Below are positions 3,166 through 10,587 of a DNA stretch of 10,587 bases, one piece after another. The notes beneath the pieces were generated by a model that was not told the origin of the DNA, did no database searches, and worked only from the letters and a program-made list of their open reading frames with translations. Made by a program: the position numbers and the translations under genes. Position 1 is the first letter of the stretch; each line of letters starts with the position of its first letter. Source of the stretch: an uncultured archaeon (GTDB lineage Archaea; Asgardarchaeota; Heimdallarchaeia; Heimdallarchaeales; Heimdallarchaeaceae); the NCBI GenBank assembly GCA_964534625.1, contig CAZHRF010000074.1:1-10587 (forward strand), written 5' to 3'.

Positions 3166-3459
3166 TTATTTCTCTTCAGGCACGGGTGCAGCTATCTGAT
3201 AGGCTCTAATTCCTCCAACTAGCATATAATAAAATCCTGTGCACACTATCGGAACAATAAACAATATGCTAAACATTAATAACCCCCCTTTTTCCATGTT
3301 AGGTGCTACGTTTTCGTAAAACCATAGAGAAATATCTTCAAAAAATAGCCAAAAAATAATAAACCCTGTAACTATGATTGTTCCACCTATTGCTTTAAAT
3401 AATGATTGGTAAAATTCCTTATCTTGTTTTCTCGTTTCTTTCTTGCTCATATCCTTCAA
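3166..3459 (-). CDS. Small two-TM membrane protein, unknown function
   Basis: 97 aa from TTG, or ATG at 3450. Charged N-terminus, then two hydrophobic helices (AIGGTIIVTGFIIFWLFF; LLMFSILFIVPIVCTGFYYMLVGG). GAGG upstream at 3467-3464. Confidence 0.75.
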   Translation of the reverse strand: MKDMSKKETRKQDKEFYQSLFKAIGGTIIVTGFIIFWLFFEDISLWFYENVAPNMEKGGLLMFSILFIVPIVCTGFYYMLVGGIRAYQIAAPVPEEK

Positions 3460-3585
3460 ATATCCTCACTCTATGACTCTTTAAATTTCTTTTGTTTAGT
3501 ATTTTATTTTTCTGTTGGGTTACTTTAACTTACAAAACAATTTTATGTGTGGCTTAATTATTATATTTGTCAAAAGGTTTTATTT

Positions 3586-4395
3586 ATGTCTAGTCCAAAT
3601 ATTAATGTTGAATTATTTGATAGAAATGAATTTGAATTTTATCGTAGAATGGCAGATTCAGAAGTAAGAGATAATAAATATGGTTTCTTCTACAAAAACA
3701 AACGTATTGAAACCTATAGTTATGTAACACCAAAAGATGAGGGAGTTAAAGACTTCCAAGAATTTCTTTCCTTCACTTTTTCATTCTTTGGAGGTGGAGA
3801 GGAGTATATTATTATCAAACACCCACTAGGTAAGTACTATATGAAAAATTCTAAAATACTCAGATCTCGAGGGTTCATTCCTTTTGACATGGGTGTTTTG
3901 GTTCAATACTGGACTCCCACACCAACTAGTAAACAAAAATTAAAACCAGATCCCTCAATAATTATAAAAGAACTCACCCGAGATTCTTTAGACATATGGA
4001 TTGAAGTTTTTTATCAATCCTTTCTATATCCCAAACATTTACGTGAAACACTTAGAAGGATGATTAGTCATCAAATTGAGCGCGATGTTAAATTTTTTGT
4101 AGGATGCAAAAACAATAAATCAGTTTGTTGTTTTAGTTCTTTTCAAATCGATAACATTATTGGTCTCTATGGAGTTGGTACCGCAGAAAAATATCAACGC
4201 CAAGGGTATGCTACCTCCGTAATGTCCAATTTTATGAGTGATTTGTTAGAAAGAGATTCTTCCATAATCTTTTGTCTTCAAACATATAAGGGACGACCAG
4301 CGGAAAAATTGTATACTGGATTAGGGTTTGAAACTGCTTATACTCAAAAAAGATTTGATTGGGATCCCCAATCAGTTGATTGTTCAAATCTCTAA
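3586..4395 (+). CDS. GNAT-family N-acetyltransferase (C-terminal GNAT domain)
   Basis: Acetyl-CoA motif A LYGVGTAEKYQRQGYATSVM and motif B AEKLYTGLGF. ATG 3586 is preferred over GTG 3547 because an AT-box (TTAATTATTATA, 3554-3565) lies about 20-30 nt upstream, consistent with a leaderless transcript. The 3' end overlaps the convergent gene by 12 nt. Confidence 0.85.
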   Translation: MSSPNINVELFDRNEFEFYRRMADSEVRDNKYGFFYKNKRIETYSYVTPKDEGVKDFQEFLSFTFSFFGGGEEYIIIKHPLGKYYMKNSKILRSRGFIPFDMGVLVQYWTPTPTSKQKLKPDPSIIIKELTRDSLDIWIEVFYQSFLYPKHLRETLRRMISHQIERDVKFFVGCKNNKSVCCFSSFQIDNIIGLYGVGTAEKYQRQGYATSVMSNFMSDLLERDSSIIFCLQTYKGRPAEKLYTGLGFETAYTQKRFDWDPQSVDCSNL

Positions 4396-5263: not shown

Positions 5264-5317
5264 ATAGATTTGATAAAAAACTCGAAAAACTAATAAACCT
5301 TGAATCTATTATTGACT

Positions 5318-5833
5318 ATGGAAAAACAAACAACCCCACTTGATTCATTTAAAGAAGCATATTCAGAGACAAAGGACTTTTTAGAACGATTACCTTCTTT
5401 ATTAGAAAAATTGATTTCTTATGGTGAAACAATCAAAGAAGAGAATTCTAATCTTAAAAAAGAACTAGACACCATACAGTCAGAATTAGATTCCCACAAA
5501 CAACATTATGGAGAAGTTGAGGAACAGATGCAAAAATTTAGAGAAATGTACGAGGAGATAGCACAAGAACAAGCTGAAGAATTAGATATTAAGAAATTGT
5601 TATCAATTTATTCTATATTGTTCGAACAGGTTTTTGCTGCAAATCCGCACACAAAGATTCTACTTCTTCTACAAAGTTCTTCAAAGAAGGTATGGACTCG
5701 AGATGAGCTAACCAAAACAACCGGGTTTAGTCCCGCCGCAGTCTTGAAATCGTTACATGATCTAAGAAATAACAATTTGATTGATTTAGATGAAGAAACA
5801 AATGAAATTAGATTAATCGAAAAATTAGCTTAA
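5318..5833 (+). CDS. Coiled-coil protein with a C-terminal winged helix-turn-helix domain
   Basis: Heptad-like E/K/Q-rich N-half (IKEENSNLKKELDTIQSELDSHKQHYGEVEEQMQKFREMYEE). The C-terminus PHTKILLLL...WTRDELTKTTGFSPAAVLKSLHDLRNNNLIDLDEETNEIRL fits wHTH. ATG 5318 is preferred over TTG 5300. Confidence 0.8.
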   Translation: MEKQTTPLDSFKEAYSETKDFLERLPSLLEKLISYGETIKEENSNLKKELDTIQSELDSHKQHYGEVEEQMQKFREMYEEIAQEQAEELDIKKLLSIYSILFEQVFAANPHTKILLLLQSSSKKVWTRDELTKTTGFSPAAVLKSLHDLRNNNLIDLDEETNEIRLIEKLA

Positions 5834-6626: not shown

Positions 6627-7526
6627 TCAACTGTTGCCTTTTTCATCAAGAGAGGAAGAGCCTTTTTTATTCAATGCCAATTTAACATATCCCAAATCTG
6701 CCAAAAAGGCTTTCAAAGGTACAATCGTCAAAATAATTAAATAAAGAATAAATGCAAGTCCGCCTAAAATTATTCCCCATTCTGCTTCTATTAAAAACAA
6801 AGGGGCTATTATCAAGCTTAATAAAGATAATATGCTTACTGATAGACTATAGTTTATTACCATTTTTATTCCAGTTAATGGTTTTTTAATATTAAAGGTG
6901 TTGTATAACCATGTTGATGTAACATAATATATTCCAAAAAAAGGAGCAGAAAGTATTAATATACTTGCCCATATTAATCCAATTATAAATAATACGTCTA
7001 ATCCTGTAATTCCAAACAATGCTAGGATAGAGAAAGCCGCAGCTATTAACGCACATCCATATGCTAAGGAAGAAATTGCACTAACTAAAACATTTGATGT
7101 AGGTAATGGCCCACTTAAAAACCCCATCAGTTTCACTGTTTCATATGGATGTTCTATTTCTTTTGGATAATATTGATCTTCTTGTCTTTTTAGAGGGGAG
7201 AACATTCCTTGTTGCCAATTGGGTTGATAATCACCTTTTTGTGGTTCCATATAATCAGGTATAACTAAGCGATCACCATCTGTTTCTTTCATTCCAGGGG
7301 GTAAGTCTTCCACCTCAGAAGCTTTTTTTATTGGAACCGCTACTCGTTTCTCAGGAGCAGAAACCTCAGTAATATCACTACCGCAATTAGCACAAAATTT
7401 ATCGGTTACTGTATTTGGGTGAGAGCAGTTAGGGCAGAATTTAATGGGTTCACCACAATATTTACAGAATTTTGAAGATTTTCGTATTTCATTATGACAT
7501 TTAGGACAAGCTATACTATCAGACAT
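6627..7526 (-). CDS. Double zinc-ribbon (DZR) membrane protein with about 4 TM helices
   Basis: Four CxxC pairs (CPKC, FCKYCG, CPNC, FCANCG), a P/E/Q-rich linker, then about 4 hydrophobic helices. Confidence 0.85.
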   Translation of the reverse strand: MSDSIACPKCHNEIRKSSKFCKYCGEPIKFCPNCSHPNTVTDKFCANCGSDITEVSAPEKRVAVPIKKASEVEDLPPGMKETDGDRLVIPDYMEPQKGDYQPNWQQGMFSPLKRQEDQYYPKEIEHPYETVKLMGFLSGPLPTSNVLVSAISSLAYGCALIAAAFSILALFGITGLDVLFIIGLIWASILILSAPFFGIYYVTSTWLYNTFNIKKPLTGIKMVINYSLSVSILSLLSLIIAPLFLIEAEWGIILGGLAFILYLIILTIVPLKAFLADLGYVKLALNKKGSSSLDEKGNS

Positions 7527-7786: not shown

Positions 7787-8932
7787 TTACCGTTCATATA
7801 TCTCAATTTTTGCATTCTTTATCTCTTTTTCTTGTTTTAAGATTTCTTTTCTTGTATCTCTTCCAGTTTTAAGCAGTTCCCAGAATCTTTCAACAAAATC
7901 GGGATTAATACCCATTAATACTCCCCTTATTGACAGCAATGGTTCGTCTATTGACGTTAATGCAACAGATATACTACCCTTTTCGAATCTTTTTGCTATT
8001 TTTTTGGTTTCAAAAGTTACTTGATAAGAATCGGGTGCTGTTATAGCCAAGAAACCCCTTTTTGCACGAGTTATTTCTGCAGTCAAACTTGAATTTTCCT
8101 CAAGCGACTCAAAGAACATATCAGAGAATCTAACATTTCTAGATCTTTGTTTTTCTTCAAAGGTTTTATCTAACGACACTATAACTCCTATTCCTTTTGT
8201 TTGATGACTTATAGCTCTAAAGAAATCATCTAATCCAGCATTGTATTCTTCATGGTTACTTTCTTGCATTGCAGCTAATATTGTTGTTACTAAAGTTTCA
8301 GCTAAACTTTCGTTACTTTTCTTTATTGCTTTTTCAACGGGATCTTTTTCATTTTTCTGTATTAACTTATTGTTATCAAATAGAATGATAGGTGATTGTG
8401 GTCCATCAGATCCGAATCCGAGATAATACAATGCTTTGGATGCGTTATATTGTATCATGGATGGTTCATTCTTTTCCGGTACAATAAATACCACAGTTGG
8501 AGCATTTCCAGTTATTCGTTCTATCATCTTTGAAGCTAGCATTGAACCAGCAGCCCCTGTTCCACCACCACTACCTATTACTAAATGTAGAGCTAGGGGA
8601 GATTCACCTTCTTTTATGTCTTCTTTTTTATAGTATACGACTTTTTCCACTTTTTTGTAAAGATCCTCTTCCTTGTGTTGTATATCTTTTTGAGCTTCTT
8701 CTATACGATAATTTGATGTCTTTTTTTTCTCTCCAAACCAGAATTTTTCTCCATAATTTTTTATTTCGGGTTCAAAATCATCTGTATAATTGATAGCCAA
8801 TGATTTTACATTAATATCATTTTCTTTAAAGTGGGCAATTATCAAATCACCAATTTTACAACCAGCATTTCCTGCCCCAATAACAGAGACAGAGATAGTT
8901 TTTCCGAATATTTTTCGTTTTAACCAAGACAT
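7787..8932 (-). CDS. Divergent tubulin/FtsZ-superfamily protein (CetZ/FtsZ3-like, not canonical FtsZ)
   Basis: T1 VIGAGNAGCKIGD, T2 LAIN, T4 GSGGGTGAAG (GGGTG at 8569-8555), T5 IVPEKNE, YNASKAL, T6 IILFDN, SNESLA and T7-like YNAGLDDF. C-domain EITRAKRGFLAITAP and IRGVLMGI, followed by a long C-terminal helix. Confidence 0.9.
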   Translation of the reverse strand: MSWLKRKIFGKTISVSVIGAGNAGCKIGDLIIAHFKENDINVKSLAINYTDDFEPEIKNYGEKFWFGEKKKTSNYRIEEAQKDIQHKEEDLYKKVEKVVYYKKEDIKEGESPLALHLVIGSGGGTGAAGSMLASKMIERITGNAPTVVFIVPEKNEPSMIQYNASKALYYLGFGSDGPQSPIILFDNNKLIQKNEKDPVEKAIKKSNESLAETLVTTILAAMQESNHEEYNAGLDDFFRAISHQTKGIGVIVSLDKTFEEKQRSRNVRFSDMFFESLEENSSLTAEITRAKRGFLAITAPDSYQVTFETKKIAKRFEKGSISVALTSIDEPLLSIRGVLMGINPDFVERFWELLKTGRDTRKEILKQEKEIKNAKIEIYER

Positions 8933-8947
8933 TAGTTAGCCTCTCCT
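8930..8947 (-). promoter_or_regulatory. Translational coupling site: SD-like AGGAGAGG plus TAATG stop/start overlap
   Basis: Minus strand AGGAGAGG (8947-8940), 7 nt spacer, ATG (8932-8930). The TAA (8934-8932) of the upstream gene shares nt 8932. Confidence 0.7.
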
Positions 8948-10332
8948 GCAAATACTTTCAAAATTCTTCTGATATTCAATATATATATCCATACTGCCAA
9001 GAAACTTTTTAGTATCTTACCTGTTGATATAGGTACTGTTTTCATTGCTGATATATATTCTCTTAAAGAAAACACTGTTATAGTTTCTTGTTTTGCATAT
9101 TCAGCATATTTTTCTTCGAACTCCATAACAGAGCTGTAAATATAATTATCCAATTCGGACAATGCCTTAACTTTAAACTTTTTCATCTTGATATTAAACT
9201 TGTACAATGGAATGATCACAATTAGAACCATTACCGCTGCAACAACTATGGATACAAGCATGACTAACACGGGGACAGAAGCATTATCAGTCACCATGGG
9301 AATATTCATTGTAGGCATAAATCCAGCATATGTTCCATCTCCTGGATAGACCATACCTATAATTGGCAAAGCTATTTGATTGCTTATACCCATAAACATG
9401 GCTAGAGTTATGATTAATGTTGATAATATACCTGCAATAGGGATATTTTCAAGTTGTCTTATCGATCTACCTGGTGTGTCACCTAAAGCCCATATTATTT
9501 CATAGTTCTCTGTTGTTAGTAATGTTCCATATTGTTCTACATATTCACTTATGCGTTCTGTAATCTGGTTTAACACTTCCGAATAAATCCGCGTGTTAAG
9601 TATTGAATAATATACAGCTACTAGAAATATATATAGTAATATTGGGTTGAATACAAGAGAAAGATAACCACATACTATTGTAAATGCAGAAACAGTTTTT
9701 ATGCCCCCATAAATTATTAAGGGTACCTGCATTCCTGCCCCTATAATAATAGATAGCGTAACTATTAGCCAATTGAAGGGCAGTTTTCGATCATAATATT
9801 TGTTATAATAATTACGTACTGGACTTTCTAACCAATCAACCTTCTTTTCGATTATTAAACCTAAGTAGCCATCATGAGTGAATTTCAAATAAAAAAGCGC
9901 AAAAAAGACTGAAACTAAAATGGGTATTATAATCAAGAAAGGCACTGCCGTTATCATGGTCTGTTCATTAGCTGGTGTAGCTCCATCTAAAACTTTCCAT
10001 ATATCTCCTTGAAACGATAGAATGGAAAATAAACTTGTTGGAACCCCGAATAGAGCTATAAAAAACCATAGTTTTACATAATCAAACCAATTTAGGGATA
10101 AAATTGTATTCAGTTTTACCTTGAAGAAACAAACAGGTAACAGATGTATTTTTCTAAATGGGTTCATTAATGCCTTTACATACCGAGGGTTCTCAATTAA
10201 ACCAGCTGTGCTCGGAAACTTCTTCTGGTGTTCAATAATTAGTCTTTCAAAATCAAATTCAGAAGACTCTTTTTCTTTAGATATAACAAATTTAGCCCCT
10301 ATTTTAGGGCGTTCTTCAGTTGTTGTTTCCAT
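8932..10332 (-). CDS. Polytopic membrane protein (about 6-7 TM), unknown function
   Basis: 466 aa with a largely hydrophilic N-terminal ~85 aa. Hydrophobic segments at about aa 88-107, 127-149, 185-208, 214-245, 297-328, 353-377 and possibly 440-454. Charged helical loops at aa 246-296 and 378-432. Confidence 0.85.
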   Translation of the reverse strand: METTTEERPKIGAKFVISKEKESSEFDFERLIIEHQKKFPSTAGLIENPRYVKALMNPFRKIHLLPVCFFKVKLNTILSLNWFDYVKLWFFIALFGVPTSLFSILSFQGDIWKVLDGATPANEQTMITAVPFLIIIPILVSVFFALFYLKFTHDGYLGLIIEKKVDWLESPVRNYYNKYYDRKLPFNWLIVTLSIIIGAGMQVPLIIYGGIKTVSAFTIVCGYLSLVFNPILLYIFLVAVYYSILNTRIYSEVLNQITERISEYVEQYGTLLTTENYEIIWALGDTPGRSIRQLENIPIAGILSTLIITLAMFMGISNQIALPIIGMVYPGDGTYAGFMPTMNIPMVTDNASVPVLVMLVSIVVAAVMVLIVIIPLYKFNIKMKKFKVKALSELDNYIYSSVMEFEEKYAEYAKQETITVFSLREYISAMKTVPISTGKILKSFLAVWIYILNIRRILKVFAGEAN

Positions 10333-10587
10333 ACTATTGTGTACAAGTCAACACTATTTTTAACTCTATCGCCTTTTTGGAAAAATAATAAACTATTATC
10401 TCCTAAATGTGAGATATATTGAATCTTACGATACATCGCTTTGTCGATAAAATGAAAAAGAATCAAAATTAAGTTACTATTACGATGTTATATTTTTTGG
10501 AGAGATTATATCATTACAAATCCTAATTAGACCTGTTCACTAAACCAACATCGTTAACACTATAAAGAGAAGTTACGCTGAGCAGTT

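Follow-up and report, generated by a model that had tools for sequence, protein, structure and literature searches.

Asgard cytoskeletons figure centrally in present thinking on eukaryogenesis, and work on them has so far dealt with FtsZ1/2, OdinTubulin and AtubAB. Here we describe a gene of the tubulin/FtsZ superfamily found in a stretch of 10,587 nucleotides (the window) on a contig of a Heimdallarchaeaceae genome. Its product, P0001, is a protein of 381 amino acids (aa) encoded at positions 7787-8932 of the minus strand, directly behind the gene of a polytopic membrane protein. The P0001 family is a new variant within the superfamily and forms part of an order-specific three-gene module, which also includes a degenerate paralog, P0088, encoded on another contig. 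A preliminary description of the window had drawn attention to non-canonical loops in the GTP site of P0001. Judging from comparison with its orthologs, the gene is intact and strongly conserved, and the odd loops are lineage traits under purifying selection rather than damage.

An intact gene with relatives in one archaeal order

A search of 5.8 billion proteins yielded 55 full-length orthologs of P0001 at 52-63% identity, and all the named sources are Heimdallarchaeaceae or 'Heimdallarchaeota' metagenome-assembled genomes. Orthologs are present as one copy per genome in 29 of the 30 genomes of the window's own family, and none contains internal stops. Four public runs of a single microbial-mat study, each assembled separately, contain the whole P0001 gene with 0 differences (contig word depth 20-142). 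These runs are possibly the source of the window's DNA, so that they rule out an assembly slip and do not serve as independent biological replicates. The listing of public runs that carry the gene included no RNA run.

More distant relatives were sought exhaustively among 1.84 billion representative proteins, which gave 28 clusters at E values up to 1e-3. Apart from the orthologs, they comprise two sets of sequences with 19-28% identity, one a 'short' type (~385 aa), like P0001, and the other a 'long' type (~440 aa) that is extended at its N-terminus. Most genomes of the order's three other families carry two adjacent paralogs (below, f1 is the Heimdallarchaeaceae-like family of the window, and f3 and f4 are other families of the same order). 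The family profile matches 45 of 46 other genomes of this Heimdallarchaeial order, and the pair is carried by 1 of about 353 other Asgard genomes, a count from which two further genomes with FtsZ-level scores (58-59 bits) were excluded. In another order of the class, the pair was seen in 1 of 22 genomes (G061:C52:667-1794 and 3166-4011), where it could stem from horizontal transfer or binning contamination. Our literature searches found no paper describing this tubulin-like family, and the P0001 subfamily is apparently small and undescribed.

The predicted structure lies nearest to CetZ and TubZ

An AlphaFold2 (AF2) model of the P0001 monomer was built on 78 relatives, an earlier model from 22 close orthologs having had a poor C-terminal domain. 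The model (predicted local distance difference test score, pLDDT, 87.8; predicted template modeling score, pTM, 0.87) has the two-domain tubulin/FtsZ fold, with a Rossmann-like GTPase domain, the core helix H7 and a C-terminal activation domain, followed by a long C-terminal helix. Its best structural matches are CetZ proteins (4b45, 4b46, 3zid), the archaeal tubulin-like proteins of cell shape, with VIA Z scores of 35.3 (CetZ2, 4b45), 32.7 and 32.5 over 315-330 aligned residues. B. cereus TubZ (4ei7, 32.3), TubZ-Bt (28-30), FtsZ (about 27) and tubulins (about 26.5) come next. Matches to the superfamily span residues ~8-368, and Foldseek aligns the model to CetZ with an E value of 3e-18. By the similarity scores of this predicted structure, P0001 is a tubulin/FtsZ-type protein with CetZ and TubZ as its nearest matches.

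Sequence comparisons give fainter signals in the same neighborhood. The Pfam Tubulin profile (PF00091) scores 30.8 bits on P0001, below its 33-bit cut-off (E 4.4e-7; profile positions 2-187 of 190), and is listed in the precomputed annotations of all P0001 orthologs. The NCBIfam ftsZ profile (TIGR00065) scores 21.8 bits against a cut-off of 295.2. CetZ is the best match among PDB sequences both for P0001 alone (E ~0.06) and for the ortholog profile (E 3.6e-5), and one public ortholog record is annotated 'Tubulin-like protein CetZ'. The subfamily profile had no RepX match among PDB sequences at E values up to 1. With a profile of the wider clade, short and long types together, RepX/TubZ becomes the first match, over its full length (E 1.1e-20). 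The f4 short-type and long-type profiles taken singly also match RepX/TubZ first and at full length (E 1.4e-13 and 5.9e-11), which ties the whole clade to the CetZ/TubZ neighborhood of the superfamily. Two other placements were rejected: the FtsZl1/Tubulin_2 group, as there is no match to Pfam Tubulin_2 at E values up to 0.01, and the eukaryote-like tubulins and AtubAB, to which there are no matches or only weak partial ones.

The odd GTP-site loops are shared by orthologs

The features of the gene are listed below. Residue counts refer to the 55 orthologs, and conservation, the frequency of the top residue, was calculated on a non-redundant subset of 24.

7787-8932, minus strand: tubulin/FtsZ-superfamily gene, P0001, short-type subunit (translation of a 381-aa open reading frame)
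8897-8932, minus strand: conserved basic/hydrophobic N-terminal peptide, aa 1-12 (ortholog conservation)
8861-8878, minus strand: T1 loop, aa 19-24, G-A-G-N-A-G (pattern G-x-G-N-A-G), canonical; conservation 0.88
8780-8800, minus strand: T2 region, aa 45-51, with A-I-N-Y at aa 46-49; Asn48 invariant, Asp51 0.88 (ortholog counts)
8705-8740, minus strand: T3 loop, aa 65-76, between the strand of aa 62-65 and the helix of aa 77-98 (column counts and AF2 model)
8546-8572, minus strand: T4 signature, aa 121-129, S-G-G-G-T-G-[S/A]-A-G, in P0001 G-G-G-T-G-A-A at aa 122-128 (8549-8569); mean conservation 0.96
8444-8479, minus strand: T5 loop and start of H5, aa 152-163; Pro152, Glu156, Gln161 and Asn163 conserved (ortholog alignment)
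8369-8383, minus strand: T6, aa 184-188, L-F-D-N, with invariant Asn187 at the guanine-contact position (aligned to D-N / P-N of CetZ, TubZ and FtsZ)
8312-8314, minus strand: Asn207 in core helix H7, invariant (aligned to the base-contact Asp of the same genome's FtsZ)
8225-8242, minus strand: T7 loop and start of H8, aa 231-236, N-A-G-L-D-D (hhalign and ortholog counts)
7817-7891, minus strand: long C-terminal helix, aa 348-372, as in TubZ and CetZ (secondary structure of the model; VIA alignments to TubZ and CetZ reach residues 366-381)

The preliminary description had read T1 as intact, A-I-N-Y in T2 and G-G-G-T-G-A-A in T4, and all three readings hold. The T2 spacing of the family is N-x-x-D, compared with N-T-D in FtsZ. 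In T4, Ala128 replaces the last glycine of the signature in 55 of 55 orthologs, and G123, G124 and G126 are equally invariant; six of the seven positions of the superfamily pattern [SAG]-G-G-T-G-[SAT]-G are matched, one short of the strict pattern. The reported lack of glycines in T3 was also correct, as no ortholog has a glycine there after Gly67, although the start given for that segment, 8743, takes in Phe64 and Trp65, whereas the segment itself runs from Phe66 (8737). The core of T3 consists of a conserved Trp65-Phe66, with Trp65 invariant, and then Ser/Thr72-Ser73-[Asp/Asn]74 (Ser72 in 51 orthologs and Thr in 4; Ser73 in 52/55). This loop is several residues shorter than in FtsZ, and hhalign leaves a gap of 3 residues across from the part of FtsZ T3 that is rich in glycine. 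Conservation in orthologs had been proposed as a check on the substitutions; on these counts the T3 and T4 deviations are fixed, family-wide traits, whereas at position 233 of T7 most orthologs have Asp.

The T7 loop had been read as N-A-G-L-D-D, a departure from N-x-D-x-x-[D/E], and this departure concerns a single residue. When the ortholog profile is aligned by hhalign to the FtsZ of the same genome, N231, G233 and D236 pair with N, D and D of N-V-D-L-A-D. Profile alignments to TubZ and CetZ give the same register, and helix H8 is predicted to start at Leu234. The motif N-x-D-x-x-[D/E] thus retains Asn231 and Asp236, and only its middle Asp is missing in P0001. Position 236, that of the catalytic [D/E], is Asp in 54 orthologs and Glu in 1, and the f4 short-type outgroup has Asp there too. 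Position 233, that of the first T7 Asp, is Asp in 42 and Gly in 10, with one each of Asn, Ser and Thr. Around them, Ala232, Leu234, Phe237 and Phe238 are invariant, and position 231 varies. In the tree, Gly, Asn, Ser or Thr at 233 occurs in basal lineages, that of P0001 among them, and in the sister short-type sequences; Asp233 marks the crown genus, with several reversions to Gly. Since residues other than Asp occur in these basal lineages and in the sister short type, Gly233 is a tolerated and probably ancestral state, and not a lesion or an error. Its codon, GGA (8234-8236), is two changes away from GAT or GAC, as the preliminary description had pointed out in arguing that a single sequencing error does not explain it. 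An acidic residue at position 235 is found in two orthologs only, P0001 (Asp, unique to it) and P0005 (Glu), both of which lack Asp233 (window 8228-8236). We do not claim that it compensates for the missing Asp, two lineages being too few.

At the N-terminus, residues S2, W3, L4, K5, K7, K11 and K12 are kept in at least 90% of orthologs. The peptide could be a membrane-targeting helix, and it may be the counterpart of TubZ helix H0, because VIA alignments to TubZ begin at model residue 1. Short-type and long-type paralogs across the order, the partner paralogs included, have a similar basic/hydrophobic N-terminal peptide.

A membrane protein and a degenerate paralog accompany P0001

Three neighboring genes of the window are of note.

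8932-10332, minus strand: upstream gene of a 466-aa polytopic membrane protein (~6-7 hydrophobic segments)
6627-7526, minus strand: double zinc-ribbon membrane protein with three C-terminal transmembrane segments, directly downstream (syntenic only within the Heimdallarchaeaceae-like family f1)
5300-5833, plus strand: 177-aa protein, a coiled coil in its N-terminal half and winged-helix-like towards the C-terminus (synteny kept within the family)

The 466-aa membrane protein matched no Pfam or NCBIfam family, and the ESM Atlas gave only unnamed clusters. Its stop codon and the ATG of P0001 overlap by one base (T-A-A-T-G), and in f1 as in f4 the short-type gene is immediately preceded by an ortholog of the membrane-protein gene. 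From this arrangement, we consider the P0001 gene to be translationally coupled to the membrane-protein gene. Two single-contig genomes place the locus on the chromosome, and its synteny holds across the order, next to pyruvate kinase. In f4, the operon runs long type, membrane protein, short type. The two paralogs are adjacent in f3 and f4 genomes and co-occur throughout the order; in f1, the long-type ortholog sits in a divergent unit behind pyruvate kinase.

In the genome studied here (G000), this long-type ortholog is P0088, a protein of 445 aa encoded outside the window on contig C40 (C40:1606-2940, plus strand; L022:1486-2820), where it follows the pyruvate kinase gene, the two standing at the start of the contig. 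The f1 partner is conserved in 26 of the 30 genomes of the family as well as in this genome. Its tubulin ancestry is read from hhalign to the long-type paralogs (probability 99.9% for the f4 long type), and the profile of the partner family retrieved nothing from PDB sequences at E values up to 1. In the partner, T1, the whole G-G-G-T-G signature of T4 and the Asn of T6 are gone, and the catalytic position of T7 is occupied by Asn; on these losses, P0088 is a pseudo-GTPase and the clearly degenerate subunit of the system. It also evolves faster, with 30-37% identity between orthologs compared with 52-61% for P0001. The f4 long type keeps a canonical T1 and T4 and a D-x-x-E T7, and the f4 short type keeps a TubZ-like T3.

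A 16-nt stretch near the end of the window's contig (window 10518-10533) recurs, identical and in the same orientation, near the start of C40 (C40:68-83), and the sequence beyond it is unrelated. All four separately assembled runs also end near window 10518-10533. The stretch resembles a target duplication flanking an inserted repeat at which the assembly broke off, which suggests that the window contig and C40 abut across that repeat.

Nucleotide binding and hydrolysis

On balance, we lean towards P0001 being the nucleotide-binding subunit of a chromosomal, order-specific tubulin-superfamily module that is closest to CetZ and TubZ. GTP would be bound through T1, T4, T5 (Glu156), T6 (Asn187) and H7 (Asn207), where the known contacts are conserved, and the residues of the nucleotide pocket are conserved above the average of the protein. 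Because the residues contacting base, ribose and phosphates are conserved, nucleotide binding and guanine specificity are probably retained, and we are fairly sure that P0001 binds GTP. The altered nucleotide preference raised in the preliminary description is unlikely, given the conservation of the guanine and ribose contacts Asn187, Asn207 and Glu156.

Head-to-tail stacking of subunits is common to all tubulin/FtsZ proteins. P0001 subunits would stack in the same manner, with Asp236 of the upper subunit entering the pocket of the lower one and activating hydrolysis, and such assembly-dependent hydrolysis through Asp236 is, in our estimate, rather probable. The site of the gamma-phosphate and the attacking water appears rebuilt, with a serine-rich T3 free of glycine and, in P0001, no first T7 Asp. 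The kinetics of hydrolysis and of the nucleotide switch would therefore likely differ from those of FtsZ and probably be slower; whether hydrolysis is clearly slower than in FtsZ could go either way. P0001 would be made jointly with the polytopic membrane protein by translational coupling and, as the synteny suggests, would work at the membrane together with its paralogous pseudo-GTPase partner P0088.

The loss of function envisaged in the preliminary description goes further: P0001 would bind GTP and hydrolyze it very slowly or not at all, and so assemble into stable filaments that do not treadmill, or serve for capping or nucleation. The T7 aspartates D210 and D213, together with Gly72 of T3, hold the pre-catalytic water in Staphylococcus aureus FtsZ, where the D210N and D213N mutations block assembly (PMC8936486). 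P0001 has no equivalents of D210 and Gly72 and keeps that of D213, as Asp236. Two of the holders of the water are thus missing and T3 is shortened, which makes altered or slower hydrolysis a fair expectation. However, Asp236 is nearly invariant, with Asp also in the f4 short-type outgroup, which is difficult to account for unless it acts in catalysis or at an interface, and most orthologs do have Asp233. Non-canonical T3 loops can also be active: PhiKZ TubZ is an active tubulin-like protein despite its own (PMC3678025), so that such a T3 is not by itself fatal. Together with the nearly invariant interface residues around Asp236 and the well-conserved pocket, this argues against a dead GTPase site. 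The role of a capping or inactive subunit fits P0088 much better, since T1, T4, the Asn of T6 and the acid of T7 are gone from it; of the two paralogs, this partner would more likely be a cap, nucleator or adaptor. We therefore regard a very slow or dead P0001 as doubtful.

Several points weigh against the role of P0001 as an active nucleotide-binding subunit. The Pfam Tubulin score falls just short of the gathering threshold, and the structure is a ligand-free prediction that was compared by whole-fold scores. T3 is less conserved than the protein as a whole (0.64 compared with an average of 0.75). With the equivalents of both D210 and Gly72 gone, P0001 could be nearly dead in hydrolysis, and Asp236 could be conserved for structural reasons. 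The support for an active subunit consists of motifs, conservation, predicted fold, synteny and taxonomic range.

It may also be that P0001 and its pseudo-GTPase partner form an obligate heterodimer or co-polymer, in the manner of alpha/beta-tubulin. The inactive T7 of the partner, with its Asn, would then face a structural GTP bound by P0001, and the T7 of P0001 would face a dead pocket. The co-occurrence of the paralogs throughout the order and their adjacency in f3 and f4 would fit such an arrangement, as would the losses in T1, T4, T6 and T7 of the f1 partner and the loose constraint on the first T7 Asp of P0001. Yet a near-invariant Asp236 goes unexplained if it faces a nucleotide-free pocket, the partner evolves much faster, and its f1 gene has been relocated to a divergent transcription unit that follows pyruvate kinase. 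We consider an obligate heterodimer improbable. Finally, the idea that P0001 is a decaying copy, or that its odd residues are sequencing or assembly errors, draws on the contrast between its Gly233 and the Asp of most orthologs, a kind of contrast that the preliminary description had named as a possible sign of decay, and is effectively refuted already by a full-length, syntenic reading frame with 52-63% identity and conserved pocket loops, by the recurrence of Gly233 in 10 orthologs and in basal lineages, which makes it no private lesion, by its codon two bases away from Asp, and by four identical assemblies.

Comparison with known systems

CetZ resembles P0001 in its T5 and T6 patterns and its C-terminal helix, a likeness measured by similarity scores only. 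The two share 14-18% identity, and CetZ has a glycine-rich T3 (G-H-G-V-G) and the T4 G-G-G-T-G-S-G-G. The genomic context of P0001, with a membrane protein and a paralogous partner, is also different, as is its range, which is that of one Asgard order. TubZ/RepX, the partition GTPases of type III plasmid and phage systems (4ei7, 2xka, 3m89, 4xcq), reach structural Z scores of 32.3-28 and have a long C-terminal helix as in P0001. The f4 short type shares with them a G-x-A-R-[N/D] T3 and a G-L-P-x-P-x-R junction, whereas the P0001 subfamily has replaced the TubZ-like T3. Unlike plasmid- and phage-borne TubZ, the P0001 locus is chromosomal and vertically conserved, and no TubR/tubC-like partner was seen directly beside the gene, its neighbors being the polytopic membrane protein and the paralog.

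FtsZ has the same fold (Z ~27), and its T1, T4 core, T6 and T7 can be aligned in register with those of P0001, which differs in lacking the T3 glycines and the first T7 Asp. The genome also encodes a separate canonical FtsZ, the only one found in this 90%-complete genome (G000 C34, L001:1009-2235, minus strand). In this FtsZ, a Lys interrupts the glycines of T4 (G-L-G-K-G-T-G-T-G), and the N-terminus is extended by ~85 aa.

The Asg.Tub proteins of Heimdallarchaeia and Lokiarchaeia are a CetZ-like, divergent group of the tubulin superfamily with unknown neighbors (Santana-Molina et al., 2023, PMC9871819). Two members, OLS26264 and PWI48967, have ~455-460 aa, the T1 G-I-G-E-C-G-S-N, the T4 G-G-G-T-G-C-G-G and a C-terminal half unrelated to P0001. 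From the differences in T1 and T4 motifs, length and C-terminal half, seen in a comparison of the printed sequences by eye, we rejected an assignment of P0001 to Asg.Tub.

Alpha/beta-tubulin, BtubAB and AtubAB each combine two paralogous subunits from closely spaced genes, with catalytic asymmetry in one of the two, and offer an analogy for P0001 and P0088. Their sequence matches to P0001 are weak and partial (E 3e-5 to 8e-3; Z ~26.5). The likeness to a heterodimer is by analogy, and P0088 differs in lacking nucleotide binding altogether. To our knowledge, no tubulin has lost nucleotide binding in this way.

Implications

We tentatively propose that the locus is one arm of an undescribed, three-part, membrane-associated cytoskeletal module of Heimdallarchaeales. 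Its components would be a CetZ/TubZ-like subunit that binds GTP, a pseudo-tubulin free of nucleotide and a polytopic membrane protein dedicated to the module, with the two paralogs co-assembling and the active subunit using a glycine-less, serine-based gamma-phosphate loop. This proposal is possible rather than probable as it stands.

The motifs noted in the preliminary description are confirmed, and its interpretation is borne out in part. With regard to its narrow claim, the loops are best seen as lineage traits of a functional gene and do not point to a dead enzyme. The P0001 subfamily offers a natural experiment that can show which residues of T3 and T7 are truly required in a tubulin GTPase, including a natural Asp/Gly polymorphism at the first T7 Asp. 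The pseudo-GTPase paralog that is paired with P0001 and the membrane partner are both open to direct test. If the three-part module is real, it would represent an independent specialization of tubulin subunits, one active and one structural, in close archaeal relatives of eukaryotes.

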